In this document: positions 2,967 through 59,233 of the stretch, in pieces
Layout: each line of letters starts with the position of its first letter
Numbering within the stretch: position 1 is the stretch's first letter
NCBI GenBank assembly: GCA_036012755.1
Contig: DASCPX010000070.1
Location: 32,001 to 96,000 of the forward strand
Source of the DNA: Myxococcota bacterium
GTDB taxonomy: Bacteria > Myxococcota_A > UBA796 > CAJQPC01
Length of the DNA: 64,000 bases
Reading direction: 5' to 3'
Program-made: the position numbers and the translations under genes
Notes under the pieces: generated by a model
Told to the model about the DNA's origin: nothing
Databases searched by the model: none
The model's input: only the letters and a program-made list of their open reading frames with translations

Positions 2967-4025
2967 CTAGTCGGACCCGGGACACTCTTCGACGACCTCG
3001 CGATCCCGCTCTTTGAGCGTGATGTAGTCTTGGTGCTCTGCCGTGATGTCCTCGCCCTTGAGGAACAGGCAAAGGGGCTCGCCGTCGCTCGGGCAGGGCT
3101 CGCACTCCACGCCGGAGCCGGACACGAGCTCGCAGACGTAGTTCGGGTCGTCCGCTTCGTCGAACATCGGCGCCATGTTGCGAGTGTCTCCAAGACCCCA
3201 GAGCTTCGCGCCGCCGAAGCTCTCTCCGTCGGGTGAGAAGGTGCCCTCGATGTGGAAGTCGTGGACCGGGATCTCGGCGCCGTCGTAGCGGATCGTCACC
3301 AGCTCGGCGGTGCCGGAGAAGAAGGGGTCGTTGAAGCTCACCTCTTGGAAGGGCCACGTGGCGACGGTGTACTTCACGTCGTCGACGGTCTCCGTGCACT
3401 TCTGGATGTAGGTGCCGTCGTTCTTGAGCCGCCCCTGGGCGCCGAGCATGTCGAAGGTGGTGCCGTCCGGGCTGAGCTCCTGCACGCCGATGAGGATGGG
3501 CACGTCCAGGTAGAGCCCCAGGAAGGAGCCGAAGCCGGCGGGCTCCGTGAAGTCCACGTCATCGAGCTCGACGACGTAGGCCCGGCCCTCCAGATCGGTG
3601 GCCTCGATGTCGAGGGCGTCCCCGTAGGAGTCGGTCGAGAAGGTGGAGGTGTAGGTCACGTCGCAGACGGTGATGTCCAGCGCGTAGTCCGTGTCCGCGT
3701 GCAGGTAGCCCTGGGGTGTGAGATCCACGATCTGGTCGGTCACGTTCCAGGACTCGATGAGCGCGGGCTCGTGGACGGCGACGCCGGTGTCGGTGGGGGT
3801 GCTGCGGAGGGCGAAGGCGGTGTCCTCGACGGGCTCGGTGAAGGTCACTCGCAGGCTGTCTCGCCAGTAGACGCCCGAGCCCCCGTCCTTCGGCGAGATC
3901 TCCTCCGGCACCGTCATGCAGTCATCGAGGACCTCTGAGTCGTCCCCGGCGCTGTCGTTGGTGGTGATCGTCGAGTCGGTGATGGGGGTGGTCTTGTTGC
4001 AGGCCAACAGACAGAGGAGTGTCAT
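2967..4025 (-). CDS. Lipoprotein with Ig-like (Big_5-type) domain
   Basis: MTLLCLLAC lipobox, ATGA-coupled to the upstream gene; SP.DG...LRVTFTEPV...LTPQGYLHADTDY pattern. Confidence 0.7.
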   Translation of the reverse strand: MTLLCLLACNKTTPITDSTITTNDSAGDDSEVLDDCMTVPEEISPKDGGSGVYWRDSLRVTFTEPVEDTAFALRSTPTDTGVAVHEPALIESWNVTDQIVDLTPQGYLHADTDYALDITVCDVTYTSTFSTDSYGDALDIEATDLEGRAYVVELDDVDFTEPAGFGSFLGLYLDVPILIGVQELSPDGTTFDMLGAQGRLKNDGTYIQKCTETVDDVKYTVATWPFQEVSFNDPFFSGTAELVTIRYDGAEIPVHDFHIEGTFSPDGESFGGAKLWGLGDTRNMAPMFDEADDPNYVCELVSGSGVECEPCPSDGEPLCLFLKGEDITAEHQDYITLKERDREVVEECPGSD

Positions 4026-4960
4026 TCGCTCACCTCGTTGACGGTGATGGTGTACCAGTAGAGTTCTCCGGTGCCATTGCGAGCCTCGAGGACCTGCAGG
4101 TACCAGACCTCGCCTCCTCCGCCTGTGCGCTCGAAGGCCGGATCGTTGCCGACATCGAAGGGGTTGGTGTCGGCCCACTCCTCCCAGCTGCTCTTCAGGG
4201 AGTCCCCTTCCTTGGTCGTCTTCCACATCACGAGCCTGGTGTCCAGCGGCGAGCCGAGGCGGTGGGCCACGATCTCGGCGCGGAGCTGCACCTTGGCGTC
4301 GGGGGTCGTCAGCACGTACCAGTCGCGCTCGTCTCCTTCGACGAGGGTGGCGTAGACCACCTCGCCGAGAACGATGGGCTGTGCGAGGTCCCAGCTGCCG
4401 TGGTCCTCGACCTCGACGCTGTCCGGGGTGATGGGGGACTTCGCTTCGCTGACGTGGAAGAAGTACTCGTAGCCCTCGTCGGCTCCCTGCCCGGGGTCCT
4501 GCTCGGCCATGGCGAGCCGCCAGGTGTCGGCCCCCGGGACCGGGACGAGGATGTAGGGGTCGGAGCTCTGGGCGCCCTTTCCGGCCAACAGCGCGTGGCC
4601 CCCCTCAGAGCCCAGGCCGAAGACGAGGTCCGCCGCGCTCCCGCGCTCCGCCGCGTCGACGTCGATCTCGATCCAGCCGGCGGTGCGCGTCTCGAACTCG
4701 TAGTAGTCGAGGTCGAAGCTCTGGGAGATCTCGCCGCAGGCCTCTCTCTCTCGGGCGATGAAGGTCGGCTCGGTGTCGTTGTTGTTCGGCTCCTGCTCGG
4801 GCTGCGCGCACATCGGCGGCGGCGCGGTGTCGCGCGAGTCGACGGAGTCCGCGGACTCCTTGCCCGCCGAGTCGGGCGAGGTGTCGAACCTCGGTGGCGT
4901 CACCTGCGGATTGCAGGCCTTGCACGAGGCCCAGCAGGCCAGGACCGACAACAGACCCAT
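4022..4960 (-). CDS. Secreted/lipoprotein with PPC-like (pre-peptidase C-terminal) domains
   Basis: MGLLSVLAC; EQEPNNN, DLDYYEF, GSPLDTRL motifs typical of PPC repeats. Confidence 0.7.
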   Translation of the reverse strand: MGLLSVLACWASCKACNPQVTPPRFDTSPDSAGKESADSVDSRDTAPPPMCAQPEQEPNNNDTEPTFIAREREACGEISQSFDLDYYEFETRTAGWIEIDVDAAERGSAADLVFGLGSEGGHALLAGKGAQSSDPYILVPVPGADTWRLAMAEQDPGQGADEGYEYFFHVSEAKSPITPDSVEVEDHGSWDLAQPIVLGEVVYATLVEGDERDWYVLTTPDAKVQLRAEIVAHRLGSPLDTRLVMWKTTKEGDSLKSSWEEWADTNPFDVGNDPAFERTGGGGEVWYLQVLEARNGTGELYWYTITVNEVSE

Positions 4961-4961
4961 G

Positions 4962-6395
4962 TCAGTCGCAGCCCCGCGCTTCGAGCTCGTAGGGGGCGTC
5001 GTCCTCTGCCTCCACGGTGGCCGCTGGCCAGTGGATGATGCCGGCGTTCCAGACCTCGTTGCGGGACAGCACCATCGAGTCCTCCTCGAAGAGCTCGCCG
5101 TCGAGGTAGAAGCGCACCGTCGCGGTGAGGGCCCCGTCGCCGTTGTGGTCGAAGTAGTGGACGCGCACGGGGTAGTCGCCGTCTGCGGGGGTCTGGATGT
5201 TGATGTTCTCGGGCCCGTAGCCGCCGATGTCGTCGAGGTCGAGGGTCGGGTCGTCCTCTGTCCCGGAGCTACCCCAGCTGGGGCTGGGGTTGCAGTAGCA
5301 GACGTCGCCGGGGCGCTCGAAGAGGGAGGCGTCCTCTGACTCGAGCATGTGGAGATCGACATCAGCGGCGGCGGCGTCCCAGATCATCTCGACGTGGATG
5401 GCGTCCGTCGGGACGGCGTCGATCGAGTACTTCGCCGGCGCGCTCACGACGCCGAGCTCGTTCTCGACGACGAGCTGCACTTCGTAGCGACCCGCGATGT
5501 CGAAGTAGGCCTCCGTCGCGTCCCCGACGGTGTCCTGGAGCTTGCCGCCGGAGCCGGTGGGGGTGACGACCAGGGACCACTCGTAGTCCGTGATCTCCCA
5601 GCCGCCGGGGTCGTACGAGTCCGAGCCGTCGAGCCCGATGGTCTCGGGCGGGTCGACGGAGTCGGGGCCGTCGATGACCGCGACCGGGTAGTCGAAGTCG
5701 CCGCCGCCGTTGCCGAGGAGGGTGACGATGACCTCCGGCTCGTCGGGGTCGTTGCTGGTGATGGCCAGGGAGCCGTTGTCGCCGTCGATGGTCGTCGGCG
5801 AGTACAGCACGATGACCTGCGTGGAGCCGTCGGGCGGGATCGTCTGGAAGGCCGGGTCTCCGAGGATGGAGAAGGTGCCGCTGCCCCCCTGGGAGGTGGT
5901 GCCGATGAGCAGGTCTCCGTCGCCCTGGTTCTTCAGCGTGAACCACATGGTGTCGGCGTCCCCTGGCGCGACGACGTCGAAGTCGACGCTGCTGGGGTCG
6001 AGGTGGATGTCCGGGGTCGGGCCGTCGCCGCCGAGGCCGGTGATTGAGAGTCCGAGCTCGGGGCTGTCCTCGATGTTGGTCGTGAAGACCAGCTCGGTGT
6101 CGTAGTCCTTGTAGGTCGCGGGGGTGAACTGGACGATGATCTCGGCGCGCTCGCCGCGAGGCAGCTCGAGGGTCTCGGGGTCGACGGAGTAGACACCGCC
6201 GAACTCGGCGAAGGCGAGCTCCGCCGTCAGCGGCGCCTGGCCGGTGTTGATGACCTCGACGACGGCCTCCTCCGTGAAGTCGACGACGACTTCACCGAAG
6301 TGGAGGGCCTCCGGGCTGAGGGTCAGCTCGGGGACGAGGACGTTGATCTGCTGGTCCTGCTCACATGAGAGCAGGAGGCCCACAGTGACCCACAT
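4962..6395 (-). CDS. Lipoprotein with two choice-of-anchor D/ASH Ig-like domains, a PKD-like domain and a YfaP/DUF2135-like C-terminus
   Basis: MWVTVGLLLSC; LHFGEV..NTGQAPL; SNDPDEP; LDGSDSYDP; DVDLH...LDLDDIGGYGPENINI. Confidence 0.78.
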   Translation of the reverse strand: MWVTVGLLLSCEQDQQINVLVPELTLSPEALHFGEVVVDFTEEAVVEVINTGQAPLTAELAFAEFGGVYSVDPETLELPRGERAEIIVQFTPATYKDYDTELVFTTNIEDSPELGLSITGLGGDGPTPDIHLDPSSVDFDVVAPGDADTMWFTLKNQGDGDLLIGTTSQGGSGTFSILGDPAFQTIPPDGSTQVIVLYSPTTIDGDNGSLAITSNDPDEPEVIVTLLGNGGGDFDYPVAVIDGPDSVDPPETIGLDGSDSYDPGGWEITDYEWSLVVTPTGSGGKLQDTVGDATEAYFDIAGRYEVQLVVENELGVVSAPAKYSIDAVPTDAIHVEMIWDAAAADVDLHMLESEDASLFERPGDVCYCNPSPSWGSSGTEDDPTLDLDDIGGYGPENINIQTPADGDYPVRVHYFDHNGDGALTATVRFYLDGELFEEDSMVLSRNEVWNAGIIHWPAATVEAEDDAPYELEARGCD

Positions 6396-6469
6396 GGCGC
6401 GTTCTCCTCATGGTCTTCGAGGGTAACCGGCCGCTCGGGAGGTCGGAAATGGCTGCATCGGGATCGGCA

Positions 6470-6734: not shown

Positions 6735-6736
6735 TC

Positions 6737-10491: not shown

Positions 10492-11283
10492 TCAGAGCAT
10501 ACCGAGGAGGCCCTCGCAGGCCTCTCTCATGGCTCTGACCTGCTCCGGACTCATGGGGTCCGAGGCGGTGTAGGTCTTCATCAGCTGGAGGTTCATCTCG
10601 AGTGGCTCCAGCACGCCGCTGGGGATGACGTCGCCCCCGACCGTCGCAGCGTAGGTCGCGAAGTAGTCGCCAATCGGCGGTTTGTGGAACAGCGCGTGGC
10701 CCGCCTCGTAGCGCTCCGTGTCCTCCATCGCGCCTGCCAACAGTGCGAAGGCCTGGAGCCATGCCCCCGCCGCCATCAGCGGGATGATCTCTTCCCCACC
10801 GTGGTCCTCGACGAGATCGAGGGCGTGCATCCGGCCATTGTCCAGCCGCGCGAGGACCTCTTCTGGAAGGGGTCCGGTGCGCAGGAAGGCCTCCATGTCT
10901 TGCGCGGCAGCGGAGGCTGGTCCGTCCACCTTGATGGCGTCCAGGCCGGTCTGGATGCGCGCCATGCGTTCGGCCACGAGATCCGGGTCTGCGACTCCGA
11001 CCTCGATCGCGAAGGCTCCGATCTCTGCGCCGGTGCGCGCCGCCGCGATGTTCGCCACCACCACATCCGGCTTGTGCTCGACAGCGCGTGCCCGCACCAC
11101 TGCGGCTTCCTGGAGGCCAGCCGCGGTCATCGCGGCGTGGAGTTCGACGAGGCTCGGCACGAGCTCCACGCCCTCTGGCCGGTACTCGAAGGCCATCTCG
11201 CGCCCTGGCGCCGAGCCCTCGACCGGGGCGGGCTCCGGCGGCTCCGGCTCCTCGACGGAGCATGCCAAGAGGAGGAAGATCAC
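10492..11283 (-). CDS. Helical lipoprotein of unknown function
   Basis: MIFLLLAC; start overlaps the upstream stop. Confidence 0.7.
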   Translation of the reverse strand: MIFLLLACSVEEPEPPEPAPVEGSAPGREMAFEYRPEGVELVPSLVELHAAMTAAGLQEAAVVRARAVEHKPDVVVANIAAARTGAEIGAFAIEVGVADPDLVAERMARIQTGLDAIKVDGPASAAAQDMEAFLRTGPLPEEVLARLDNGRMHALDLVEDHGGEEIIPLMAAGAWLQAFALLAGAMEDTERYEAGHALFHKPPIGDYFATYAATVGGDVIPSGVLEPLEMNLQLMKTYTASDPMSPEQVRAMREACEGLLGML

Positions 11284-12512
11284 TACTCGGGCAGGAGTCC
11301 GACGACGGATGCCTGGGAGGCGATGGCCGCCTCACCCCAGAGCTCCTCGCTGGACAGCAAGTTCGGTGTCATCCAGATCTGGCCCGTGTGGTTGATGACC
11401 ACGAGCCCCCAGGTTCCGGTCGGGACCTCGTCTCCGACGAGCTCTTCGCCGTAGCTGCCGTCCTCGAGCACTGGGACGGCGGTTCCGGTCCATAGCAGCG
11501 GCAGGCGCGAGCTCGAGTAGGGCGCATTCGGCACCATCGCCGCGGGCAGGACCCAGTCGTCCGAGTGGGTCAGGGCACGCTGGAAGGGAGTGGCTCCGCC
11601 GTCGTCCGGGTTCGGCCGGAAGTCGATGAGCGCCTGGGAGATGGTGGCCTGCTCCGGGGGGTTGCCGTCTTCGTCCAAGAGGTGCCGCATCACCACGACC
11701 GGCCACATGTCGATGGCGCCGAGCCCCGCCGCCGCTTCGACCGGGTGGGGGTCTGCAACGCCGTCGCCGTCCTTGTCCCGCGCGATGACCGTGAAGGTCG
11801 TCGGGCAGTCCTCTGCGGTGGGGTCCTCGAGCTCCAGGAGGGGGTGCGAGATGCCAGTCGAGTCCAGGTCGAACTCGTGGTCGTGCACGTTGAAGACGTT
11901 GTTCTCGAGGTTGCGGTGGGGCAGGGTCTCCAGCGCCATCGCTCCGAGGCCGTATGCGGGACGCTCCCAGGGCAGGGGATCACCGACGAGGATGGTGATG
12001 CCGTCGACGTGGTCCGGGGCCTCGACCGACAGCGGCAGGATCTCGCCGCTGGCCGCGTCGAGCACGTAGGCGCCCAGCTGATCGCCGCAGGTCGCGCCGC
12101 CCGCGAAGTCGGTGAAGAAGGGGTTGAAGTCGTCGTCGTTGTCGATCAGCGCAGAGACGACGTAGTCGCCGGAGGCCAGGCCGGTGACCCCCCATGGCGC
12201 GCTCACCACGCCCTCTGCATAGGTCCCCAGCCGCTCGCCGGAGCCAGCGCCCCACTCGTTCGAGCCGATGGTCGCCAGGGCGATCGGCGAGCCGAAGCCG
12301 TTGGGCGGCGGGAGGTCGTCAGCCTCGTAGATGAGCACGTGCCCGACGCGCCGGTCGAGGAGCTCTCCACCGCTGTCGATGCTCTGGGTGGACGCCGAGC
12401 CGCTGGTCAACACGACGTCTCCGGAGAGCACGACCGTCTCCGGGTAGTCGCCGTAGTCGACGAAGGGGGCTTCGTAAGCGCAGCCGAGGAGGAGGGATCC
12501 GGTGAGGGTCAT
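11283..12512 (-). CDS. Acidic beta-rich lipoprotein of unknown function
   Basis: MTLTGSLLLGC; starts 2 nt after the TBDR stop; GDYVVSALIDNDDDF. Confidence 0.7.
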   Translation of the reverse strand: MTLTGSLLLGCAYEAPFVDYGDYPETVVLSGDVVLTSGSASTQSIDSGGELLDRRVGHVLIYEADDLPPPNGFGSPIALATIGSNEWGAGSGERLGTYAEGVVSAPWGVTGLASGDYVVSALIDNDDDFNPFFTDFAGGATCGDQLGAYVLDAASGEILPLSVEAPDHVDGITILVGDPLPWERPAYGLGAMALETLPHRNLENNVFNVHDHEFDLDSTGISHPLLELEDPTAEDCPTTFTVIARDKDGDGVADPHPVEAAAGLGAIDMWPVVVMRHLLDEDGNPPEQATISQALIDFRPNPDDGGATPFQRALTHSDDWVLPAAMVPNAPYSSSRLPLLWTGTAVPVLEDGSYGEELVGDEVPTGTWGLVVINHTGQIWMTPNLLSSEELWGEAAIASQASVVGLLPE

Positions 12513-12514
12513 GA

Positions 12515-15004
12515 TCAGAACCGGTACTGGACGGAGCCGTGGTAGCGGGAGCCGATGGGCTGCCCGAGGGGATGCTGGACCGTGTCGCCTTGGATGTCCG
12601 CGAGCCAGTTCCAGGCGTTCAGGGACAGATCCATGCGCTCCTCGCCGAGGGGCACGTGCCACACGAGCTTGTTCGACAGCACGATGCGACCCGGGCTGTC
12701 GGTGTCGACCGAGATGAACCGGCCCTCTTCGTCGAAGCCGCGGATCGGCCAGACCTGCCGGTCGACCCAGTTCGCCTGCATGCCGATGTCGAGGGTCCAC
12801 GGGCTGCGCCAGGCCACCCCGGCGTTGACCTTGTGGCGCGGGGTGGCGCGCAGGACGGTCTTCTCCTGGCCGACCTCGGCGATGCGCTCGTAGGCGTAGT
12901 TGGCGTAGGCGTCGACTCCCTCGATGCCGAAGTACTCGGCGCTGGCCTCGGCACCCACTGCCCGGAAGATCTCCCCCTCGTTGGCGAAGCTGGCCTGGCC
13001 CGCGACGTAGGCGCCGATGTCTTCGTCGAAGCCCCCCGCCGGCGCGGTAGAGGAGTCGAGGTCTGTGAGGTCGATGAGGTTGTCGACCTGGAAGCCATAG
13101 ACGGCCAGCTCGGCGCGGAAGACATCGGTGGAGTGGTCGAGGTAGCCGATCTCGAGCGACGCGATGCGCTCGGGTGCGAGCTCTGGATCGCCGACGGTGT
13201 TGACGCGGACGCCGTCGATGCCGCTGTCCAGGTAGAGGTTCGAGTAGGACTCCATGAAGGTCGGGGTCCGGAAGGCGGTGCCGGCGTTCACACGCACCGC
13301 GCGGCCCTCGCCCACCCTCGTGACCACCGACAGGCGCGGTGAGGGGATCGGGTTGGCGATCAGGGGGTGCTTGTCCACCCGGACGGCGCCGGAGAGCAGC
13401 ACCGGCCCGAAGCGCGACTCGTCCTGGATGAAGCCCGAGAAGTGATGCTGGACGTGGTCCGCGTCGAGGAAGCCCCAGACGATGCTCTTGTAGCGGTAGT
13501 TCACGCCGACGAGCAGCGTGTGGCGGTCATCTGCTCCGAAGTGGAAGTTGCCGTCCGCGGTCGCGTCGAAGACGTCGGAGAGCAGCTGCGAGGTGAGCGC
13601 GTAGCCCTCGGTCGGGTGGTACCAGCTGCCGGTGTCACCGTTGAGGCGGTTGTAGAAGGCGCGCACATGCAGCGGCCCGTAGCCGGCGTCGCCGCGCACA
13701 TAGCTGTTGCGCTGGTCCAGGTAGAAGTCGCGGAGCGCGCCGAGGCTCATGAACTCGATGAGGCCCACGGCCGAGCCACCGGAGACCGAGACGAAGCCCC
13801 TGTCCCCGACTCGCCAGTCGACCTGCCCGTTGGCCTTGGTCATCTCCAGCGCCGTGTCCTGGTCCTCGACGTCCGAGTAGAGGTCCGGACGGGTCGACAG
13901 GTCGACCGGCTGGGCCCAGCGGCCGTAGGTCGTGTAGCCGGCGGAGACGCGCCACCCCATGTTGTCCTGCCTGCCGCTCATCATGGCCGAGCCGTCGGCG
14001 TAGCCCCCCGTGCCGCCGCCGACGCGCAGCACGTTGTCGTTGGCGGGATCGCCAGGGGTCTTCGTGATGATGTTGACGACGCCGGCGAAGGCGTTGGCGC
14101 CGTAGATCGCCGAGCCGGGACCGCGGATGACCTCGATGCGGTCGATCTCGGCGAGGGTGATCGGAAGGGCCTCCCACAGGGTCGCGCCGATGAAGTCGAG
14201 GTAGACGCTGCGCCCGTCGACGAGGACGAGGAGCTTGTTGGACAGGCGCTTGTTGAAGCCACGCACCGACAGGTCGGACTGCCCGGCGGTCAGCGACAAG
14301 GCGTCCACGCCGGGGATCCGCGCGAGCAGCTCCGGCACGGACGTCGCCGAGCTCATCGCGATGTCCTCTGCCGTGAGGATCGTGATCGCGGCGGGTGCCT
14401 CCAGCGGGTCCTGGCCGTAGCGTGACGCCGTGACGACCACCCGGGCATAGAGGTCCTCGACCAGCGCGCCCTCCAGGGCGAGGGACTCGGGCTCGACGGT
14501 GGTGGGCTCCTCGATCTCGACCGCGACCACCTCGCCTGCTGCCTGCTCTCGTGCCGCCAGCTTCTCGGCGAGGGCCTGGAGCTCCTCTGCGTGGCGCCGC
14601 AGCTCGGCGAGCTCGTCCGCTGTCGCGACCGGGCCGGTGGAGGTGGTCTCGGGGACCTCGACCGGTGCCAGTGCGGCCATGCGGGTCCGCAGGGTCGCGA
14701 TGAAGCCCTCGACCGCTGCGCGGTCGATCGGCTCTGTGGCCAGGTAGAGCTCGAAGGTCTGGATCGCTTCTTCGTAGTGTCCCGCGTCGGCGTAGGCGCG
14801 GGCGATGTTGTAGAGCACGGCTGGGTGGGGGACGAGGTCGTAGGCCTTCTCGAACTTCTCGATGCCGCCGATGTAGTCACCGGTGGCGATGAGCTCGAGG
14901 CCCTCGTTGAAGGCTCGTCGCGCCTCGTCCTTCGGGGCCGCGAGGGCAGTCGAGGACCAGAGCAGGGACAGTCCCAGCAGGCAGCGCGAAAAGGAGTTCT
15001 TCAT
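12515..15004 (-). CDS. TonB-dependent receptor with N-terminal TPR domain
   Basis: Signal peptide; TPR (FEKAYDLVPHPAVLYNIARAY); VVVTASR TonB-box-like segment; plug RIEVIRGPGSAIYGANAFAGVVNIITK; terminal QYRF. Confidence 0.93.
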   Translation of the reverse strand: MKNSFSRCLLGLSLLWSSTALAAPKDEARRAFNEGLELIATGDYIGGIEKFEKAYDLVPHPAVLYNIARAYADAGHYEEAIQTFELYLATEPIDRAAVEGFIATLRTRMAALAPVEVPETTSTGPVATADELAELRRHAEELQALAEKLAAREQAAGEVVAVEIEEPTTVEPESLALEGALVEDLYARVVVTASRYGQDPLEAPAAITILTAEDIAMSSATSVPELLARIPGVDALSLTAGQSDLSVRGFNKRLSNKLLVLVDGRSVYLDFIGATLWEALPITLAEIDRIEVIRGPGSAIYGANAFAGVVNIITKTPGDPANDNVLRVGGGTGGYADGSAMMSGRQDNMGWRVSAGYTTYGRWAQPVDLSTRPDLYSDVEDQDTALEMTKANGQVDWRVGDRGFVSVSGGSAVGLIEFMSLGALRDFYLDQRNSYVRGDAGYGPLHVRAFYNRLNGDTGSWYHPTEGYALTSQLLSDVFDATADGNFHFGADDRHTLLVGVNYRYKSIVWGFLDADHVQHHFSGFIQDESRFGPVLLSGAVRVDKHPLIANPIPSPRLSVVTRVGEGRAVRVNAGTAFRTPTFMESYSNLYLDSGIDGVRVNTVGDPELAPERIASLEIGYLDHSTDVFRAELAVYGFQVDNLIDLTDLDSSTAPAGGFDEDIGAYVAGQASFANEGEIFRAVGAEASAEYFGIEGVDAYANYAYERIAEVGQEKTVLRATPRHKVNAGVAWRSPWTLDIGMQANWVDRQVWPIRGFDEEGRFISVDTDSPGRIVLSNKLVWHVPLGEERMDLSLNAWNWLADIQGDTVQHPLGQPIGSRYHGSVQYRF

Positions 15005-34736: not shown

Positions 34737-34801
34737 TGCTGTGGCAGAGGACCTGATCGCGGCTGAACCCCGGCGACCGCGTCGCCGCAGTAGGCTTCGG
34801 C

Positions 34802-41846: not shown

Positions 41847-43718
41847 ATGTGGCTCCTCCTCCTCGCCGTCGCCCTCGCCGAAGTCCGCCTCGAAGGCACT
41901 CCAGAGGTCCCGGCTGACCTCGCAGAGAGGCTCAGGCCCTACCTCAGTCCGCGCAGCGCAGCGCTCGTCGATCTCTCACCTGATGGGAGCGAGGTGCTCG
42001 TCAGCACGCGCTTCGGCGAGACCAGCCAGATCCACCGGGTGTCGACCCCGCTCGGCATGCGCGAGCAGCTCACCTTCCTCGAGGAGCCGGTCAGCGGCGT
42101 CGAGCCGATCCCAGGCTCGGAAGACCTCTTGTTGCGAGCTGACATCGGCGGGGACGAGCAGTGGCAGGTGCTCCAGTGGTCCGATGGGCGCACGACGCTG
42201 CTGAGCGACGGAGAGCATCGCCACGGCGGGCTCCTCTACGACCGCTCGGGCGAGGTCCTGGCCTTCACGAGCAACGCCCGGAACGGCCGCGACACGGACG
42301 TCTACGTGAGCGGGCCGCGCATGGAGGAGCCCCGGCGGGTCACGGAGTTCGAGGGCGCCTGGCACGCTCGCGGCTTCAGCGCTGACGGCCAGTGGCTGCT
42401 CGTCGGTCACTACGAGAAGGTCGATCGCACCGAGCTCTGGCGCGTCCATCTAGCCAGCGGCGAGGCCGAGCGCCTGACCCCAGAGGACCACCCTGCCGCC
42501 TACCACGGCATCTTCTCGTCGGATCCCCAGGTGCTCTACGTGCTCACGGACCGCTTCGGCGAGTTCCGCCAGCTCTACCGCCTGGACCTCGAGGTGCGTC
42601 GAGAGTCGAGAAGGTGGACGCTCTTGAGCGAGCAGATCCCCTGGAACGTCGAGGACCTCGAGCTCTCCCCCGATGGCCAGACGCTGGCCTTCGTCGTCAA
42701 CGAAGAGGGCTACCGCAGCCTCCGCCTCATGGACACGGAGACAGAGGTGATAAGCGAGCCGGCTGGCCTCGACGCCGGGCTGGTGACCGGGTTGAGGTTC
42801 GCCCGGGACGCCAACGTGCTGGGGCTCACGATGTCCGGCCCGACCATGCCCGGGGACGCCTTCACCCTGGACCTCGACAGCGGTGAGCTGACGCGCTGGA
42901 CCCGGAGCGAGCTCGGAGGCCTCGACGAGGGCGACCTCGTCAGCCCCTCCCTGGTGCGCGTGGAGAGCTTCGACGGTCTCGAGATCCCCGCCTTCGTCTA
43001 CCGCCCGAGCACGCCGGGGCCCCATCCGGTGGTGATCTTCATCCACGGCGGGCCAGAGGCCCAGGCGCGACCGAAGTTCTCGGGCCTCGCCCAATACCTC
43101 GTCCGCGAGGAGGGCATGGCGGTCGTGATCCCCAATGTCCGCGGCAGCAACGGCTACGGAAGGACCTACCTCGGCCTGGACGATGGCTACGATCGCGAGG
43201 ACAGCGTGCGCGACATCGGCGCCGTGCTCGACTGGATCGCCGAGGATCCGGAGCTCGACGAGTCCCGCGTGGCGGTCCGCGGTGGCAGCTACGGGGGCTA
43301 CATGGTCCTCGCCTCGCTGGTCATGCACGGCGATCGTCTGAAGGCCGGCATCGACAACGTCGGCATCTCGAGCTTCGTGACCTTCCTCGAGAACACGAAG
43401 CCCTACCGGCAGGATCTCCGGCGGGTGGAGTACGGCGACGAGCGGGACCCGGAGATGCGGGCCTTCCTGGAGGAGATCAGCCCGGTCGCCCACGCGGACG
43501 AGATCACCAGCGCCCTGTTCGTCGTGCACGGGGCCAACGATCCCCGGGTTCCGGTGGGCGAGGCCGAGCAGATCGTCGCCGCCGTGCGCGGCTCTGGCCA
43601 GGAGGTCTGGCTGATGGTGGCGCTGGACGAAGGCCACGGCTTTCGCAAGAGATCCAACCGGGACCTCTTCTACGAGCTGACGGTGTTGTTCCTCCGCCAT
43701 CAGCTGATACCGAATTGA
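41847..43718 (+). CDS. S9 family serine peptidase (beta-propeller + hydrolase)
   Basis: IHGGPE, GGSYGG, GANDPRV, DEGHGF. Confidence 0.94.
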   Translation: MWLLLLAVALAEVRLEGTPEVPADLAERLRPYLSPRSAALVDLSPDGSEVLVSTRFGETSQIHRVSTPLGMREQLTFLEEPVSGVEPIPGSEDLLLRADIGGDEQWQVLQWSDGRTTLLSDGEHRHGGLLYDRSGEVLAFTSNARNGRDTDVYVSGPRMEEPRRVTEFEGAWHARGFSADGQWLLVGHYEKVDRTELWRVHLASGEAERLTPEDHPAAYHGIFSSDPQVLYVLTDRFGEFRQLYRLDLEVRRESRRWTLLSEQIPWNVEDLELSPDGQTLAFVVNEEGYRSLRLMDTETEVISEPAGLDAGLVTGLRFARDANVLGLTMSGPTMPGDAFTLDLDSGELTRWTRSELGGLDEGDLVSPSLVRVESFDGLEIPAFVYRPSTPGPHPVVIFIHGGPEAQARPKFSGLAQYLVREEGMAVVIPNVRGSNGYGRTYLGLDDGYDREDSVRDIGAVLDWIAEDPELDESRVAVRGGSYGGYMVLASLVMHGDRLKAGIDNVGISSFVTFLENTKPYRQDLRRVEYGDERDPEMRAFLEEISPVAHADEITSALFVVHGANDPRVPVGEAEQIVAAVRGSGQEVWLMVALDEGHGFRKRSNRDLFYELTVLFLRHQLIPN

Positions 43719-43777: not shown

Positions 43778-45307
43778 GTGTCCGTCCTCGTCTTGTTGCT
43801 GAGTGGTTGTGAAACCACCTCCGATGTCGATGCCCAGCAAGCTTGGGTCGATGTGGACACCGGGCTCTATGACGACCTGGATCCCTCCGAAGGAATCGCC
43901 TGGGACGACCCGAACTATCGGCCAGAGATCGACCGCTGGGCCCCCTACGGCGTGCCCATCGACCTCCCGCTCGGGACCTCGAACGCCGAGAACGTCGCGG
44001 ACGCTCAGTGGAAGGGCGAGGGGGAGGACGCCAAGCTCGGCATCAGCGTGCGGAACGCTGGCGACGTCAACGGCGACGGCCTCAACGACATGATCATGGG
44101 ATCGCTGAACGATTCGACCGGCTCGAGCATCGACGGCGCGGCCTACATGAACCGGGCCAAGTTCGACACGGCCGGCTCCAACAAGCGCGCGGACGCTTCG
44201 AAGGGACGCTGGTACGGGAGCCCGGCGGAGAAGGCGGGCGAGCAGGTCAACGGCGGCGGCGACATGGACGCCGATGGCCTGGACGACTGGATCATCGGCG
44301 CCCGTTCCTGGGACGACTCGGTCGACACCTGGAAGGTCAACTCCGGCGCTGCCTATGTCGTCTTCGGCTACCACCGAGGCAACAACACCCTCCCCGCGAG
44401 CGAGTACCGGATCGACGGAAACGCCGCGAACCAGTTCTTCGGCGCGGGCATGGACATCATCGGCGACGTCGACGGCGACGGCTACGACGACCTCGGCATC
44501 GGCGCCACGGGCGCGGACACCAACGGTACGAACAGCGGCGCGGTCCATGTCTTCCTCGGTCCGGTCACCGCGGCCACGGACGCCTCCGCCGCCAGCGCGA
44601 GCATCGGCGGCGAGAGCGCGGGCGACGCGGTGGGCACCCGGATCTTCGGGCTCGGCGACGTCGACGGCGATGGCGCAGACGACTTCGGTGTCGGCAACCG
44701 GGCAGAGGACACCAACGGCACCGACGCTGGGGCTGTCTACATCATCACGGCCAGCACGATGCCGACCGACCTGGGCGACGCCGACTTCATCTACCGGGGC
44801 AACACGGCGAGCTTCGAGGCGGGGAACTCCCTGAAGCACGCCGGCGACCTCGATGGCGACGGCAAGCAGGACTTCGTCGCTGGCGCCCTGGGCCACGGCG
44901 GCACCCTCGGTGGCGCCTACGTCGTGCCCGGCGACACGGCGAGCGGAAAGCTCGGCGCTGTCGCGACCGCGAAGGTCTATGGCCAGCTCGCCGGCGATCA
45001 GCTCGGCTCGGACGTCGCCGTCGGGGACATCAACGCGGACGACATCGACGATCTCCTGGTCGCGTCGAATCGCCAGGGCTCCACGGACCGTGGCGCCTTC
45101 TACGGCTTCTACGGTCCGGTCACCGGGACCATCGCCGCCTACAGCGCGGACGTGAAGGTGGTCGGCGTGGCCAGCTCCGACAAGTTCGGCTCCTCCCTCG
45201 ACTACATCCCGAACACGACGGTGGACGGCAAGAACACCGTGGTCGCCGGGGCCAGCTCACGCGGCACGAACAACAAGGGTGCCGTGTACCTCTTCCACGT
45301 GGACTGA
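43778..45307 (+). CDS. FG-GAP/integrin-alpha repeat lipoprotein
   Basis: AGGAG + GTG, LLLSGC; repeated GDVNGDG..D, GAVY. Confidence 0.9.
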   Translation: MSVLVLLLSGCETTSDVDAQQAWVDVDTGLYDDLDPSEGIAWDDPNYRPEIDRWAPYGVPIDLPLGTSNAENVADAQWKGEGEDAKLGISVRNAGDVNGDGLNDMIMGSLNDSTGSSIDGAAYMNRAKFDTAGSNKRADASKGRWYGSPAEKAGEQVNGGGDMDADGLDDWIIGARSWDDSVDTWKVNSGAAYVVFGYHRGNNTLPASEYRIDGNAANQFFGAGMDIIGDVDGDGYDDLGIGATGADTNGTNSGAVHVFLGPVTAATDASAASASIGGESAGDAVGTRIFGLGDVDGDGADDFGVGNRAEDTNGTDAGAVYIITASTMPTDLGDADFIYRGNTASFEAGNSLKHAGDLDGDGKQDFVAGALGHGGTLGGAYVVPGDTASGKLGAVATAKVYGQLAGDQLGSDVAVGDINADDIDDLLVASNRQGSTDRGAFYGFYGPVTGTIAAYSADVKVVGVASSDKFGSSLDYIPNTTVDGKNTVVAGASSRGTNNKGAVYLFHVD

Positions 45308-45372: not shown

Positions 45373-46926
45373 TCAATCCACCCTGAACAGGTAGACCGCG
45401 CCCTTGTCGCCGCTTCCGCGCTTGGAGGCGCCGACGACGACCATGTTCCGGCCGGCGAAGTCCGCGTCCTCGACGTAGTCGACCCAGCTCCCGAAGTAGT
45501 CCCCGGCGCCGACACCGACGATCTTGGCGTCCGAAGCGTAGGCCTGGATCGTTCCGCCGCCGCTGAAGGGGCCGTAGAAGCCGTAGACCGCGCCGCGATC
45601 GTTGGTCGCCTGGCGGTTGGCCGCGACGAGGACGTCCGCGACCGCGTCGCCGTTGATGTCGCCGACCGCCACCGAGCTCCCGAACTGGTCGCTGGTGAGC
45701 TGGCCGGAGAACTTGACCGTGGCCACCGCGCCCAGCTTCGCGCCGCTGGTGACGCTGTCGCCCTCGAGGTAGTAGGCCGCACCGGTTCCACCGTGGCCGA
45801 GCGCGCCGACGACGATGTCTGCGAAGCCGTCTCCGTTCATGTCGCCGCCGTCTGCCACGCCCGTTCCGGCCTGGCTGCTGGCGAGGTTGCCGCGCACGAT
45901 GATGTCGGCGTCGCTGAGGTCTGCGGGCATCGTCGAGGACGTGATGATGTAGACCGCGCCGGCGTCCGTGCCCGTGGTGTCCTCGAAGCGCACGCCGAGG
46001 GCGAAGTCGTCGAAGCCGTCGCCGTCCCAGTCGCCGATGCCGCGGATGCGGGCACCTGCGCCGTCTCCAGCGCTCTCTCCGCCGATCGTGGCGTCGGCGC
46101 TGGCCGAGCTCGTGTCGGAGGTGACCGGTCCGTAGAAGAGGTAGGCCGCGCCTGAGCTGGCGCCGTTGTCGTCCGCGCCGGTGGCGCCGATGACGATGTC
46201 GTCGTAGCCGTCGCCGTCGATGTCACCGACGATGTCGGCGCCAGCGCCGAAGTAGTCGTAGGCCTTGTCGCCGTCGATAGAGGCCTCGGCTCCGGTCGGG
46301 AGGTCGTTTGCGCCGCGGGTGAAGCCGTGGACCACGTGCACGATGCCGTTGTTGACCTTCCAGGTCTCGACCGTGTCGTCGTAGTAGCGGCCACCGACCA
46401 CGAAGTCGTCGCTGCCGTCGCCGTTGAGGTCGCCCCCAGCCCCGAGCGCTTCGCCTGCACCGCTGCCGGAGAGGCCGTAGTAGCGACCCTTGGCGCTGCC
46501 GATGTTGGCGTCGGTGGTGGAGAACGCGCCCTTCTGCATGTAGGCCGCGCCGTCGCCGCCGCCGCTGCCCGACTTGTAGAGCGAGCCGGCGATGATCTCC
46601 TGCACGCCGTCACCGTTGAGGTCGCCGCCCGCAGCCACCGAGATGCCGAAGCGGTCGCCGTCGCTCTCACCCTTCCAGGTGACGTGATCGATGGTGTCCG
46701 CGCGGCTGGTGCCAAGGGGGATGTCGATCGGGTAGCCGTCGGGGGCGGTGCGGTCGATCCAGGGCTTGTAGCTGGGATCGTCCCACTGCACGTCGTACTC
46801 GGGCTCGGCGAACTCGCCGGTGTCGGCCTCGAGCTCGAGCTCGCCCTCGGTCGCACAGCCGCTGGTCAGGGTGGCACTGATGAGACCCGCGCCAGCGAGC
46901 GCGAGGATGGAGAACCGTTTCGTCAT
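45373..46926 (-). CDS. FG-GAP/integrin-alpha repeat lipoprotein (paralog of 43778..45307)
   Basis: MTKRFSILALAGAGLISATLTSGC; same repeat layout as its partner. Confidence 0.9.
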   Translation of the reverse strand: MTKRFSILALAGAGLISATLTSGCATEGELELEADTGEFAEPEYDVQWDDPSYKPWIDRTAPDGYPIDIPLGTSRADTIDHVTWKGESDGDRFGISVAAGGDLNGDGVQEIIAGSLYKSGSGGGDGAAYMQKGAFSTTDANIGSAKGRYYGLSGSGAGEALGAGGDLNGDGSDDFVVGGRYYDDTVETWKVNNGIVHVVHGFTRGANDLPTGAEASIDGDKAYDYFGAGADIVGDIDGDGYDDIVIGATGADDNGASSGAAYLFYGPVTSDTSSASADATIGGESAGDGAGARIRGIGDWDGDGFDDFALGVRFEDTTGTDAGAVYIITSSTMPADLSDADIIVRGNLASSQAGTGVADGGDMNGDGFADIVVGALGHGGTGAAYYLEGDSVTSGAKLGAVATVKFSGQLTSDQFGSSVAVGDINGDAVADVLVAANRQATNDRGAVYGFYGPFSGGGTIQAYASDAKIVGVGAGDYFGSWVDYVEDADFAGRNMVVVGASKRGSGDKGAVYLFRVD

Positions 46927-47014: not shown

Positions 47015-47848
47015 ATGGGAGAGATGTCCGTCCGCCGCAAGCTCGCGATCGCCTCCTGGGAGGCCCCTCGCGAGGGGAACATCTACGGCAAGCTCACGGT
47101 CGACGCGACCCAGGCGGTTGCCTACATCGACTGGGCGCGGGAGCGGACCGGTGAGAAGGTCACCATCACCCACCTCGTGGGCCGCGCCGTGGGCGAAGCG
47201 CTGAAGCAGACCCCCTCGCTCAACGGGCGCATCGCCTGGGGTGCCTACCACCCGCACGAGACCGTCGACGTGAGCTTCCTGGTCGTGCTGGAGGGGGGCA
47301 AGAACCTCGCCAAGGCCAAGATCGAGCGGATCGACGAGAAGTCCTGCGCAGACATCGCCGCAGAGGTCCGCGAGCTGGCGACTCGGCTTCGCGAAGGGCG
47401 GGACGATGCCTTCAAGAAGTCCCAGGGTCCGCTCGCGATGCTGCCGACCTGGATCATTCGCCCCCTGGTCCACTTCACGGGCTGGCTGACGTCATCCCTG
47501 GGCGTCGAGGTCGGCTCCCTGGGGCTCGAGCGCTACCCCTTCGGCAGCTGCATCATCACCAGCGTAGGCATGTTCGGCATCGACGAGGGCTTCGTCCCGC
47601 CGACCCCCTGGGCGCGGGTGCCGGTCTACGTGCTCATCGGTGCCATCTCGGAACGACCGGCGGTCGTCGACAGCGAGCTCGTCGTGCTGCCTCAGCTGAC
47701 GATCACCGCGACGATCGACCACCGCTTCATCGACGGCTTCCAGGGCGGCGTGCTCGCGAAGGTCATCCGCAGCGTGCTCGAGAATCCCTGGCAGCTCGAG
47801 GGCATGGACGGCCCCCCCGGAACTCAGTCCTCGTCTTCCGAGGAGTAG
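47015..47848 (+). CDS. Stand-alone 2-oxoacid dehydrogenase E2 acyltransferase catalytic domain
   Basis: ITSVGMFG, TIDHRFIDG; no lipoyl domain. Confidence 0.87.
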   Translation: MGEMSVRRKLAIASWEAPREGNIYGKLTVDATQAVAYIDWARERTGEKVTITHLVGRAVGEALKQTPSLNGRIAWGAYHPHETVDVSFLVVLEGGKNLAKAKIERIDEKSCADIAAEVRELATRLREGRDDAFKKSQGPLAMLPTWIIRPLVHFTGWLTSSLGVEVGSLGLERYPFGSCIITSVGMFGIDEGFVPPTPWARVPVYVLIGAISERPAVVDSELVVLPQLTITATIDHRFIDGFQGGVLAKVIRSVLENPWQLEGMDGPPGTQSSSSEE

Positions 47849-48435
47849 TCAGGCAGCTCCTGCCCAGCCAGGGTCAGGAGTGTCTCGTCGTAGAAGTCGA
47901 CGACGTAGACGACGAGGGGCTCGGGGTCTCGTCGCATGGCGGCCAGGTGCTCGATGTAGGACCAGTGAGTCGTGTCGTCGTCGAGCTTCACCAGGTGAAG
48001 GCTTCCGACCATGCGCTCGATGACGTCGGTGCCGTCGATCTTCTCGAAGCGGATCGCGACGAGCTCCATGTCGTCCTCGGTCCCCCAGACGAGCGCCTCT
48101 CGCCAGGCGGTGACCCACTCGATCGTGATGACGTCGTGGACCGTGTTGTCGAGCACGCAGCTCTCGTCGTACTCGGGCTCCGTGTCCCAGGTGATGTCCC
48201 ACTCGTCGACCTGTCGGCGGTCGATGAAGACGTCCTCGACGAGGATCGCCGTCCACACCTCCGAGAGCGGAGCGTCGATGCGGCCCGCAGCGTGGACCCA
48301 GTCGTAGTCGTCCTCCTGCCCGCTGAGGACGTTGAGGGACTCGGTCTCCGGGAAGCTCGCCGTGTTGTCTTCCAGCGCCCTGAGCCCCTCGGGTATCGGG
48401 GGGAGTTCGTCGGCACAGGCGAGGAAGAGCAGCAT
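47824..48435 (-). CDS. Lipoprotein, possible START/SRPBCC-like fold
   Basis: MLLFLAC; GRIDAPLSEVWTAI. Confidence 0.65.
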   Translation of the reverse strand: MLLFLACADELPPIPEGLRALEDNTASFPETESLNVLSGQEDDYDWVHAAGRIDAPLSEVWTAILVEDVFIDRRQVDEWDITWDTEPEYDESCVLDNTVHDVITIEWVTAWREALVWGTEDDMELVAIRFEKIDGTDVIERMVGSLHLVKLDDDTTHWSYIEHLAAMRRDPEPLVVYVVDFYDETLLTLAGQELPDYSSEDED

Positions 48436-56065: not shown

Positions 56066-56124
56066 GGCGGTGCACCAAGCGCTGGTGACCCTCGTGTGAG
56101 GGATCCAGGCCCCGATTCACCGAT

Positions 56125-57495
56125 TCACTCCGCCAGGAGCTCCTCGGCGGCCTCGTGCATCTCCTCCACCTGGGGGAACAGGATCTCCTCCAGCGAGCCC
56201 TCGAAAGCCGCCGTCGAGCTCAGGGTCGTGTAGGGCTCCTGCTCCTCCAGCGCGTAGGGCTCGACCAGGTCGTGGTAGCGGGTCATGCGCTGTCTTTGTG
56301 TCTCGAGCTCGAAGGGCGTCTCGACCATCTCCGCCATGTGCTCCAGGTAGCGCTCGCGGTAGACCGGGTCGTCTGCCAGGTAGCGGATCAGGGGCCAGTC
56401 GTCGTCCACCTCGTCCATGCCCAGGGTCAGGGGCGCTGCGTGGCCCTCCCAGCCGTAGCTCATGTTGAAGTCCCAGGGGATCCACACCAGCCGGCCGTCC
56501 TCTTCGGGGTCGCCGTAGAGGTAGTAGTTGTGGGACATGTTGCCGTAGCTGTCCCAGTTCTCCAGCAGGTTGTTCAGGGCCAGGTAGCGCAGGAAGGCGT
56601 CGACCTCGAAGGTGGCCTCGAGCCCCTCTCTCCAGGCCTCGGCGTCGCTGCGGTCGGCGTTGAGGGCATCCACGAAGGCCTCGACGTCGCCGAAGTCGTC
56701 CTCGGCCTCGTTGGTCTTCTTCTCGAAGCCGGTCGCGTCGAACTCCATCAGCTGGGCGGGACCCCCCTCGGGCTTGTAGGCGTTGCCGCTGTCGCCTCCG
56801 AACCAGTCGTCCAGCATCTCCCCCGCGGGGTCCTCGAAGGCGGTGTAGAGCCCCCAGAAGACCGGCCCGTCCCCGACATCGACGTAGACGCGCATGAAGC
56901 CACCCCGTGCCGCGGGCACGCCCGCATCTCGGAAGGTCTCCGCGGTCGCCTTGTCCCGGATCAGGCTGTCGTCCTTGAATCCGCTGGAGAACTTCAGGAC
57001 CTTGAAGCCCCAGAAGCGCTGGTCCTCGATCTCCGGGATGTCGTCCTCGAACTGGTCGAACTCCAGGCGGAAGGGCAGCTTGCCGGAGCCCTCCATGTAA
57101 GCCTGCATCAGGCTGGAGTTCCCCTTGAAGCGCATGCCCACGCTCGGCCAGGTGCGGTCGTCGAAGGAGACGTCGACCGGCACGTAGACCGGGTCAGCCA
57201 GCGCTTCTGGCGGCTCGCCCCCGGGTCCTCCTCCTCCCGGCCCGCCTCCTCCGGGTCCTCCGTCCATGTCCCCGTAGAGCGCATCGAGGTCATCCACCAT
57301 GACCTGCCACCTCGCATCGCAGATGCTGATGTCGAGGCGAGGCACGGCATCCTCTGGCAAGACGAGGTCGGCCTGGCCGTCGACCCCCTTGGCGTGAGAG
57401 GTCTCGGACCAGCCGACGGCTTCCATGCTCGTGCAGTCGTCGTCGGAGTTGGTGGTGGTTTCAGGGCTGCAGGCGAGTACAAGGTAGAGAAGCAA
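56125..57495 (-). CDS. CotH kinase family lipoprotein
   Basis: MLLYLVLAC; VGMRFKGNSS, NWDSY...HNYYLY, WIPWDFN. Confidence 0.9.
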   Translation of the reverse strand: MLLYLVLACSPETTTNSDDDCTSMEAVGWSETSHAKGVDGQADLVLPEDAVPRLDISICDARWQVMVDDLDALYGDMDGGPGGGGPGGGGPGGEPPEALADPVYVPVDVSFDDRTWPSVGMRFKGNSSLMQAYMEGSGKLPFRLEFDQFEDDIPEIEDQRFWGFKVLKFSSGFKDDSLIRDKATAETFRDAGVPAARGGFMRVYVDVGDGPVFWGLYTAFEDPAGEMLDDWFGGDSGNAYKPEGGPAQLMEFDATGFEKKTNEAEDDFGDVEAFVDALNADRSDAEAWREGLEATFEVDAFLRYLALNNLLENWDSYGNMSHNYYLYGDPEEDGRLVWIPWDFNMSYGWEGHAAPLTLGMDEVDDDWPLIRYLADDPVYRERYLEHMAEMVETPFELETQRQRMTRYHDLVEPYALEEQEPYTTLSSTAAFEGSLEEILFPQVEEMHEAAEELLAE

Positions 57496-57562
57496 CGCGC
57501 ACTCGTGACAGGGGTCACCAGGTAAACGCAGCAGGGCGGAAAACCTGTGCCGGATACTCCTA

Positions 57563-59233
57563 TTACTTCAGCGCCTCCTCCGCGTAGGCCTCCAGCTGGC
57601 TCCAGTCCCCGGTCCAGGTCGTGTACATCATCCCGGCGAGCTCGATCCCGGCGGCCTCCTCCTTTTCCGAGGCCGCGGAGGCCGCGCCGTCGCCGCTGTC
57701 GTAGAAGCCGGCGATGACCTGGTCGTGGCCGAGGCCGTCGAAGTGGGCCAGGGACTCCGGGCTGTGGAGCCAGTTCACCAGCAGCACGTCCTGCTCCAGC
57801 CCCTCCCAGCTCCCGGAGATGTCTCCGTCGACGAGGTAGTAGTCGTCGTGGGCGTTGTGGTTGGGGTCGAACATGTCCGACCAGACCAACAGCCGGGACC
57901 CCGGCCGCGCGGTCTCCACCGCGGCCTGGATCGAGACCATGTGGTCGGCCAGGAGTTCGCCGGCGCTCTGGCCAGTTCCGGCGCAGGCCCCGCAGGTGTT
58001 CATGTGGCGCATCTCGTCGTGCATCGAGAACACCGCCGGGGCCTCCGGGAAGCGCTCCGCGACCGCAGCGAGGTTGTCCGCCACCCAGGTGTGGACCGCG
58101 GGCTCGGTCAGGCAGGCGCCGACCTGGTAGCCGTAGACCGGCGCGACCGCGTAGTAGTCGAGTTCGACACGGTCTCCGACCGACAAGGAGCTCCCCTCCG
58201 GCACCGTGATCACGACCGGCTCGTGCCACTCGTCGAAGGTGCCGTCGTCCCTCAGTCGCGTGTCGACGAGGTCGTCGAGGTCCACCCCCTCGATCAGCTC
58301 GCGGCCATCCGAGCGGGCGTCGATGGGAGCCCCGTCCCGGCGGATCAGGTTCACCGGGGCGGTCTCGGTCACGCTCACGTCGTCGAACCACGCAGTGCCC
58401 GAGTGGTTGCCCCAGACGCCCAGGTAGAGCGAGACGGTCTGCGCCTCTGCCGTGTTGACCGTGATGTCGTAGCGGGTCCAGTCCTGGGTCGAGGACATCT
58501 CCCAGGTGGTGCTGTTCAGCGAGCGCCCGGCGTCGGTGTCGTAGAGCATCACGTTGAACCAGTCCGCCGAGAAGTCCTGGGTCTTCAGGCGGAACGAGAC
58601 GTGGAGCTGGCGGTGGGGCTCGACGTCCAGGGTCTGGACCAGGCGGGCGTTGTCCGAGCCCTCCTCGACACGGGCCGCGCCGTCGTCCGCGCTGACTCCG
58701 TCGTCCCACCAGGTCCAGCCGGCGAGGCCCGAGCTGAAGTCGCCGCCGGGCAGGGACACCTCGGAGTCCACCTCGAGCACCCCGGCGCTGCCCACGACGA
58801 AGGGCTGGGCGACCACCGCCTGGCCCTCCGCGAGGTTGGCGTCGCTTCGCAGGATGCCCTCGCTGTAGCCGAAGGGCAGCACCGCGGGGATGGCCACCAT
58901 GCCGTGCTCCTCGATCCGCGCGAGCAGCGCGGCGAGGTGCTCGTCGTAGGTCTCGTCCAGGGCGCCGGTGTGCAGCAGGTGGACCTTGAAGTCCGCCACC
59001 ACGACCCCGGTGTAGCCAGCGGCTGCGGCCCTATCGACGATGGACAGGGCCTCGTCGAGGTTCTCGTCCACGAGGAGGTTGTGGCGCAGGTAGATCCAGA
59101 GCTGGAAGCCCTCTGGCCAGTCGGCCTCCGGAGGCTCGCTCTCGAGAGGCTCGCTCTCCGAGACGAGTCGGCTGTCGTCTTGGGGCTCGGGGGTGCTCGA
59201 GGGAGAAGGGCAGGCGAGCAAGGCGAAGAGCAT
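57563..59233 (-). CDS. Lipoprotein, putative glycoside hydrolase (TIM barrel) with CBM-like insertion
   Basis: MLFALLAC; AAAAGYTGVV, HDEMR, WSDMFDP, GMMYTTW; jelly-roll segment ending GTAWFDDVSV. Confidence 0.6.
   Translation of the reverse strand: MLFALLACPSPSSTPEPQDDSRLVSESEPLESEPPEADWPEGFQLWIYLRHNLLVDENLDEALSIVDRAAAAGYTGVVVADFKVHLLHTGALDETYDEHLAALLARIEEHGMVAIPAVLPFGYSEGILRSDANLAEGQAVVAQPFVVGSAGVLEVDSEVSLPGGDFSSGLAGWTWWDDGVSADDGAARVEEGSDNARLVQTLDVEPHRQLHVSFRLKTQDFSADWFNVMLYDTDAGRSLNSTTWEMSSTQDWTRYDITVNTAEAQTVSLYLGVWGNHSGTAWFDDVSVTETAPVNLIRRDGAPIDARSDGRELIEGVDLDDLVDTRLRDDGTFDEWHEPVVITVPEGSSLSVGDRVELDYYAVAPVYGYQVGACLTEPAVHTWVADNLAAVAERFPEAPAVFSMHDEMRHMNTCGACAGTGQSAGELLADHMVSIQAAVETARPGSRLLVWSDMFDPNHNAHDDYYLVDGDISGSWEGLEQDVLLVNWLHSPESLAHFDGLGHDQVIAGFYDSGDGAASAASEKEEAAGIELAGMMYTTWTGDWSQLEAYAEEALK

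Follow-up and report, generated by a model that had tools for sequence, protein, structure and literature searches.

Ultra-short, uncharged leaders in an order of Myxococcota: candidates for a minimal type of Sec signal peptide

Can a bacterial export signal be as short as six to ten residues and carry no basic residue? This question is raised by a stretch of 64,000 nucleotides (the window; G000:C70:32001-96000) from a Myxococcota bacterium (assembly GCA_036012755.1; genome of 6.73 Mb, 68% GC, 96% complete). An earlier note on this DNA had listed eleven N-termini with a lipobox Cys and three resembling leaders for signal peptidase I (SPI), all very short and uncharged, along with normal leaders at 15004 and 46926; all 14 short N-termini translate as quoted, and the two normal leaders were likewise verified. 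In passages of two reviews, bacterial signal peptides are described as comprising 15–30 residues, with an h-region of 7–15 residues and a basic n-region (PMC12190922, PMC5427057). The leaders considered here have about half the textbook length and are found on hundreds of proteins which have to be exported from the cytoplasm. As judged from sequence, they are real, occur beyond chance and lineage-wide, and constitute lineage-specific export signals, because their starts are fixed and because they are carried by outer-membrane barrels and by homologues of exported proteins. We consider it probable that they are genuine Sec signal peptides composed of Met, about 4–5 large hydrophobic residues and a processing box (L-L/I/F-A/G/S-C or A-x-A), the n-region being absent. 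To this extent the interpretation of the earlier note stands; the distinct export route and the Lgt/LspA paralogues that it invoked are not supported, and its modified Sec machinery is left as one candidate only.

Frequency, composition and starts of the short leaders

Our own hexamer-model caller predicted 5871 genes, 5737 of which are closed and were used for the leader counts, taking only the most upstream ATG, GTG or TTG of each; 34094 shadow open reading frames (ORFs) and 61892 internal in-frame starts served as controls. In the genome-wide census of first-Cys positions that had been proposed, a lipobox lies within 41 residues in 618 of the 5737 genes, and the Cys is at residues 6–11 in 414 of them (7.2% of all genes; mode 8), compared with 21 of the shadow ORFs (0.06%) and 77 of the internal starts. 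Short SPI-like leaders with an A-x-A box are present in 136 of 5737 genes versus 14 shadow ORFs and 85 internal starts, and a crude rule for canonical-like SPI leaders yields 67 in the genome. The 414 short-lipobox proteins form 307 clusters spread over 76 contigs, with leader DNA that differs in every case, and thus do not represent one expanded family; on the same grounds, paralogue expansion and a mobile leader cassette are ruled out.

The short leaders are hydrophobic from residue 2, and those with a lipobox contain on average 3–5.3 large hydrophobic residues, about 4–5 in all. Preceding the Cys (n = 414), residue −2 is typically large and hydrophobic (Leu 268, Ile 40, Phe 31), and residue −1 is Ala in 300, Gly in 58 and Ser in 56, a preference for small residues that is partly imposed by the search filter. 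Under a relaxed filter, Lys or Arg is present in only 8 of 374 short leaders versus 13 of 51 shadow ORFs of the same class. The leaders match neither the Tat twin-arginine motif nor the basic leader of Sec/signal peptidase III substrates, being without Lys/Arg and hydrophobic from residue 2. Downstream of the Cys, residues +2 to +16 have a mean net charge of −2.1, with Asp at +2 being uncommon (13/414), and throughout the genome the short-leader lipoproteins often run on into acidic Asp/Ser/Thr/Gly repeat linkers (e.g., G000:C59:95118-96715).

The assignment of the starts is of key importance. For 128 of the 414 genes a longer leader is impossible, since no more than 13 codons separate the Cys from an upstream in-frame stop. 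A −10-like TANNNT hexamer is located 11–14 nt upstream of the short start in 102 genes, in 70 of them at exactly −12; 115 are translationally coupled, 154 have a Shine-Dalgarno (SD) sequence, with a peak at −8 to −11 from the short start, and 97 have none of these features. If only a −10-like box or coupling is used to fix the start, 309 of 368 lipobox proteins have the Cys at residue 11 or earlier. As to conservation in homologues, which the earlier note had suggested to inspect, close homologues retain the short start, and the homologues of two window proteins mostly carry canonical leaders at the same place. Across the genome, many start codons are preceded by a −10-like hexamer (consensus G-n-T-A-G-R-n-T) that begins 11–13 nt upstream, an indication that leaderless mRNAs are widespread; examples in the window are at 19696-19691, 48446-48441 and 34791-34796. 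A search for RNA sequencing runs, with which such transcript starts might be compared, listed none.

Distribution across the order and proteins concerned

The trait is order-wide and graded, being strongest in two genera of the host's family and in family f6. A DNA pattern encoding Met, five hydrophobic residues and Ala-Cys matches 42 times in the host genome; at least five matches are found in 15 of 44 genomes of the order (maximum 90) but in none of 257 genomes of the phylum outside it (maximum 4), and at most three are seen in each of 40 genomes to which named loci had led. A corresponding Cys-9 pattern, counted in genomes of the order only, occurs in 147 of 154, with 0 to 65 matches per genome. 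On sampled stretches, short lipoboxes are carried by 22 of 558 genes in ten genomes of the order versus 1 of 245 in seven genomes of sister orders, whereas the short-SPI rule separates the two groups poorly (26/558 versus 6/245). The closest named relatives, for LspA as for other proteins, are metagenome-assembled genomes filed as Myxococcota or misfiled as Alpha- or Deltaproteobacteria.

BamA and TonB receptors are exported by Sec. In the host genome, BamA (811 residues) starts with MIHLLLAFWIALA, and the leaders of all six Omp85-family matches, BamA among them, are uncharged and about 10–15 residues long. Such leaders of 10–15 residues are also present at three of four interpretable OEP/TolC loci (a fifth coincided with a long, unrelated ORF) and in three of eight TonB-receptor matches, two of the others being canonical and three uninterpretable. 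One TonB-receptor barrel (G000:C127:59330-60229, minus strand) forms the end of a 1014-residue ORF that opens with membrane-like segments rather than a signal peptide.

Two proteins of the window could be compared with 120 homologues each. Those of the S9 peptidase starting at 41847 mostly have canonical Arg/Lys-bearing leaders of the signal peptidase II (SPII) or SPI type: 62 carry a lipobox, 58 of these with Lys/Arg, and the closest homologues have short uncharged leaders. Among those of the CotH protein starting at 57495, 74 carry a lipobox, which lies at residues 15–30 with Lys/Arg in 42 and is short and uncharged in 10. Homologous proteins can therefore bear either a long or a short leader. 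BamD, as a rule a lipoprotein, failed as an orthologous lipoprotein test: at nearly all of 30 loci of the order, read by eye, the protein (YfiO; G000:C149:39926-40537) seems to begin with an SPI-type leader that lacks a lipobox Cys, one locus (G152) having been read in the wrong frame.

When compared with canonical Sec/SPII leaders (lipobox L-A/S-G/A-C), the short lipoprotein leaders likewise place a Cys after a hydrophobic run, with a small residue at −1 and a polar linker following; Lgt, LspA and Lnt are encoded, and homologues elsewhere have canonical SPII leaders. They differ in having the Cys at 6–11 (mode 8), no basic n-region, only about 4–5 large hydrophobic residues, and a large hydrophobic residue at −2. 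In the second class, an A-x-A box precedes a hydrophilic mature domain, as in Sec/SPI leaders, and BamA, TolC-type proteins and TonB receptors are among its carriers; these leaders measure only 8–13 residues, are hydrophobic from residue 2 and have no Lys/Arg. A large hydrophobic −2 residue is also a feature of the spirochaetal lipobox (L-I/L-A-C), where leaders have normal length and a basic n-region, and leucine-rich signals without basic residues are known from the eukaryotic endoplasmic reticulum, again at normal length.

The trait is apparently undescribed so far. Our literature searches found no prior description of ultra-short uncharged leaders, although subscription papers or bioRxiv supplements could hold one, and a term search of a secretome study covering a UBA796 metagenome-assembled genome gave no passage on short signals (PMC11495043). 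If export and lipidation of these proteins hold true, the smallest possible bacterial signal peptide would be roughly half the size assumed so far, and an entire envelope proteome, with BamA among its members, could do without the basic n-region. For about 150 genomes, rules that rely on length and charge are likely to overlook a large part of the envelope proteome; in one public gene call (P0121, for the CotH protein at 57495) the start is already placed at an internal Met, so that the leader is lost.

Export machinery, candidate mechanism and rival explanations

Inspection of the machinery, as the earlier note had advised, located SecA, SecY, the signal recognition particle (SRP) protein Ffh, Lgt and LspA. 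The genome encodes one SecY, one SecA, one Ffh, five Lgt, two LspA, one Lnt, three S26 peptidases and two deformylases. With Sec, SRP, Lgt, LspA, Lnt and SPI present, a separate export route is not needed, and the one proposed before finds no support. Nor do Lgt or LspA appear to be the cause: the number of Lgt copies does not track the trait (3–5 in the order, 2–7 in sister orders largely without it), which rules out Lgt expansion, and the catalytic motifs of LspA are ordinary. Alignments of SecA, Ffh and LspA revealed no striking order-specific change (16/403 and 13/259 outgroup-conserved columns differ). Multiple Lgt are found class-wide, and a tandem lspA-lspA-lgt-lgt cluster is located at G000:C59:99967-102591. 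As viewed by eye, most members of the order have about two additional residues in the finger-loop region of the Ffh M-domain (G000:C27:286755-288056) when compared with sister orders.

What survives of the suggested modified Sec machinery is a single candidate, the SecY substitutions I187A/S and F192T, which are diagnostic for the order within its class but also present in other bacteria. Residues are numbered as in E. coli via the 5abb alignment, and the motif in transmembrane segment 5 (TM5; NGISIIIF in E. coli) was read in 29 genomes: in all 25 from the order (host SecY: G000:C80:13424-14641), position 187 is Ala or Ser and 192 is Thr, Ser, Ala or Val, compared with Ile and Phe in all four from sister orders. 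A pattern for a small residue 187 matches in 36 of 44 genomes of the order, in none of 14 others of the class and in 6 of 243 elsewhere in the phylum; four of these six could be read at 192, and all keep F192. We take I187 to be a pore-ring residue. Literature passages name I86, I191, I278 and I408 as ring residues, and our searches on I187 found nothing relevant. In addition, A79 is replaced by Val in 19 of 23 members of the order and in none of 150 diverse representatives. Compensation of the small residue 187 by A79V is not supported, Ala being kept in 12 of 16 rows with a small 187 (107 of the 150 rows could be parsed).

In passages of published work, prlA alleles in the ring, plug or gate of SecY are reported to export defective signals (PMC7530735), and loosening of this type to aid export (see also PMC3101351, PMC8082313). 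Like E. coli prlA suppressors (e.g., prlA4, F286Y/I408N), the SecY described here has lost bulky residues that would lie near the pore constriction and coincides with signals that look defective, the export of which is predicted here; unlike them, it is changed at I187 and F192, and the change is natural and fixed across an order. The link of I187/F192 to the short leaders is a lead, not a demonstration. By analogy with prlA, the order-wide TM5 change might loosen proof-reading and so act as an enabler, a possibility that we regard as doubtful.

How might such a leader work? Following established pathways, export would proceed through SecYEG, with subsequent action of Lgt, LspA and Lnt on the lipobox class and of SPI on the A-x-A class. 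SRP may catch the leucine-rich leader co-translationally and may shield the formylmethionine (fMet) from deformylase, which would leave an N-terminus without any charge; one study reports that SRP blocks deformylation and that SRP-protected proteins with the N-terminus outside retain fMet (PMC5454389). Without a basic anchor at the cytoplasmic face, the N-terminus could sink into the lateral gate or the bilayer, where 6–10 residues might suffice to bring the Cys or the A-x-A box to the periplasmic-side enzymes, and shortness and loss of charge would then be coupled. This mechanism of SRP capture, a retained formyl group and a sinking uncharged N-terminus is plausible, if somewhat short of probable. 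It is tempting to speculate further that the order evolved a minimal export code (fMet, about five hydrophobic residues and a processing box) by way of a prl-like SecY (I187A/S and F192T) and SRP capture, with leaders that would fail in ordinary bacteria and work with the order's translocon, but we would rather doubt than expect this. Given hundreds of natural leaders and a two-residue difference in SecY, the purpose of the n-region and signal proof-reading by SecY become testable in E. coli.

Much the same route might be open to unadapted machinery: ordinary Sec, SRP, Lgt and LspA may already accept very hydrophobic leaders of 6–10 residues, the order having drifted or been selected towards them, with the SecY change a neutral marker. 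Such an explanation, for which we see a good though less than even chance, fits the lack of a striking change in SecA, Ffh and LspA, the graded trait in the face of a uniform SecY, and the frequency of a small SecY 187 elsewhere. It also fits the view that hydrophobicity can offset missing charge (Hikita and Mizushima 1992, as cited in PMC5427057). That compensation, however, reportedly requires a longer hydrophobic stretch, as the title of their work has it, and here the stretch is shorter; furthermore, if all bacteria were tolerant, scattered use would be expected, not the at most four and three matches in the 257 and 40 genomes outside the order. Since it has the same route in common with our preferred reading of genuine Sec signals, the likelihoods that we assign to the two do not sum to one.

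The other rivals are less probable. If the leaders were exported and the Cys lipidated, they might nonetheless be too short for LspA or SPI and stay uncleaved, or the whole N-terminus might face outwards as a shallow membrane anchor; a helix of 6–7 residues cannot, by established geometry, span the bilayer, and the retention of fMet by SRP-protected proteins would agree with this. It is unlikely, though, in view of the strict small residue at −1 (in part a product of the filter), of A-x-A leaders on β-barrels that need release to the periplasm, and of the two intact LspA and one Lnt. A dedicated non-Sec route or Lgt/LspA paralogue would account for the abundance of Lgt, LspA and S26 peptidases and for the tandem cluster, yet sister orders hold similar numbers of Lgt and 1–2 LspA, BamA and TonB receptors use Sec, and homologous proteins interchange long and short leaders, which makes this quite improbable. 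We hold it to be very improbable that the true starts lie upstream at non-canonical codons and give normal leaders. Near-cognate codons at a suitable distance do exist in 110 of 414 genes, and the genes at 59233 and 43778 possess canonical starts upstream, but the artefact is refuted for the 128 stop-bounded cases, which leave no room, the −10-like and SD peaks are spaced from the short start as expected, and close homologues keep this start.

Several observations weigh against the leaders being genuine Sec signals or against the role proposed for SecY. The near-cognate codons just mentioned would place the Cys at residues 15–30, in 68 cases with a Lys/Arg-bearing leader; canonical leaders coexist in the genome, and in the order BamD mostly has a leader of normal length with Arg, as judged by eye. 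Lys or Arg is present in 57 of 59 long leaders (relaxed filter), a rate no stronger than the 51 of 57 in shadow ORFs, and consequently only its depletion in the short leaders is informative. The two deformylases bear on the retained formyl group; loss of deformylase is thereby ruled out. Regarding SecY, the six outside-order genomes with a small residue 187 have no short-lipobox match, members of the order with few short leaders share the same SecY, and among 147 diverse representatives 28 have a small residue at position 187 and 9 combine both changes. The five remaining ring positions (I82, I86, I191, I278, I408) are canonical here, and the correlation with the trait is not statistical, because it reflects one evolutionary event. 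Finally, in a cell-free screen of E. coli SecY, log2 translocation rose by +0.47 for I187M and +1.31 for F192L, but by only +0.28 for F192S versus +3.0 for I408G (PMC13537251).

Short-leader genes of the window

For eight of the window's short leaders (starts at 6395, 11283, 19684, 34802, 35602, 41847, 48435 and 57495) no ATG, GTG or TTG exists between the assigned start and the upstream in-frame stop, as had been claimed. The other six had been regarded as fixed by overlaps or a ribosome-binding site, which holds for 4025, 4960, 12512 and 39066, where the start is adjacent to or overlaps the stop of the gene upstream; least certain are 43778 and 59233.

On the minus strand, three predicted lipoproteins follow one another: 4962..6395, with HYDIN/ASH Ig-like and PKD domains (MWVTVGLLLS-C, Cys11; in-frame stop four codons upstream), 4022..4960, without a Pfam family (MGLLSVLA-C, Cys9; start 2 nt past the upstream gene's stop), and 2967..4025, with a Big_5 Ig-like domain (MTLLCLLA-C, Cys9, with an additional Cys at residue 5), which has GAGG upstream and overlaps the stop of the preceding gene (ATGA). 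A TPR–TonB-dependent receptor fusion (12515..15004, minus strand), whose canonical Lys/Arg-bearing SPI leader provides an internal control, is translationally coupled to two short-leader lipoproteins downstream: 11283..12512 (MTLTGSLLLG-C, Cys11), starting after the receptor's stop, and 10492..11283 (MIFLLLA-C, Cys8; GTG start), overlapping the upstream gene's TAG.

Further predicted lipoproteins on this strand are a β-helix protein at 18707..19684 (MLLLVLFA-C, Cys9; in-frame stop three codons upstream), for which the position of the −10-like TAAGAT (19696-19691) suggests a leaderless mRNA, and those at 38524..39066 (MILLQVA-C, Cys8; GTG start in a GTGA overlap with the upstream stop), 47824..48435 (MLLFLA-C, Cys7; −10-like TAAGCT at 48446-48441) and 56125..57495, the CotH kinase (MLLYLVLA-C, Cys9; TTG start). 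The one at 57563..59233 (MLFALLA-C, Cys8) has four upstream in-frame starts, and the sole support for the short one is a −10-like TAGACC 11 nt upstream.

The plus strand carries the SPI-like leaders MHLLASVALA (34802..35545; −10-like TAGGCT at 34791-34796), MIPILTIALS (35602..35922; in-frame stop three codons upstream) and, on the S9 peptidase (41847..43718), the 11-residue MWLLLLAVALA, with an in-frame stop one codon upstream. It also carries an FG-GAP repeat lipoprotein (43778..45307; MSVLVLLLSG-C, Cys11; GTG start), preceded by AGGAG and by an alternative TTG 21 codons upstream. A second FG-GAP repeat lipoprotein, at 45373..46926 on the minus strand, has a canonical long Lys/Arg-bearing leader and represents the other internal control.

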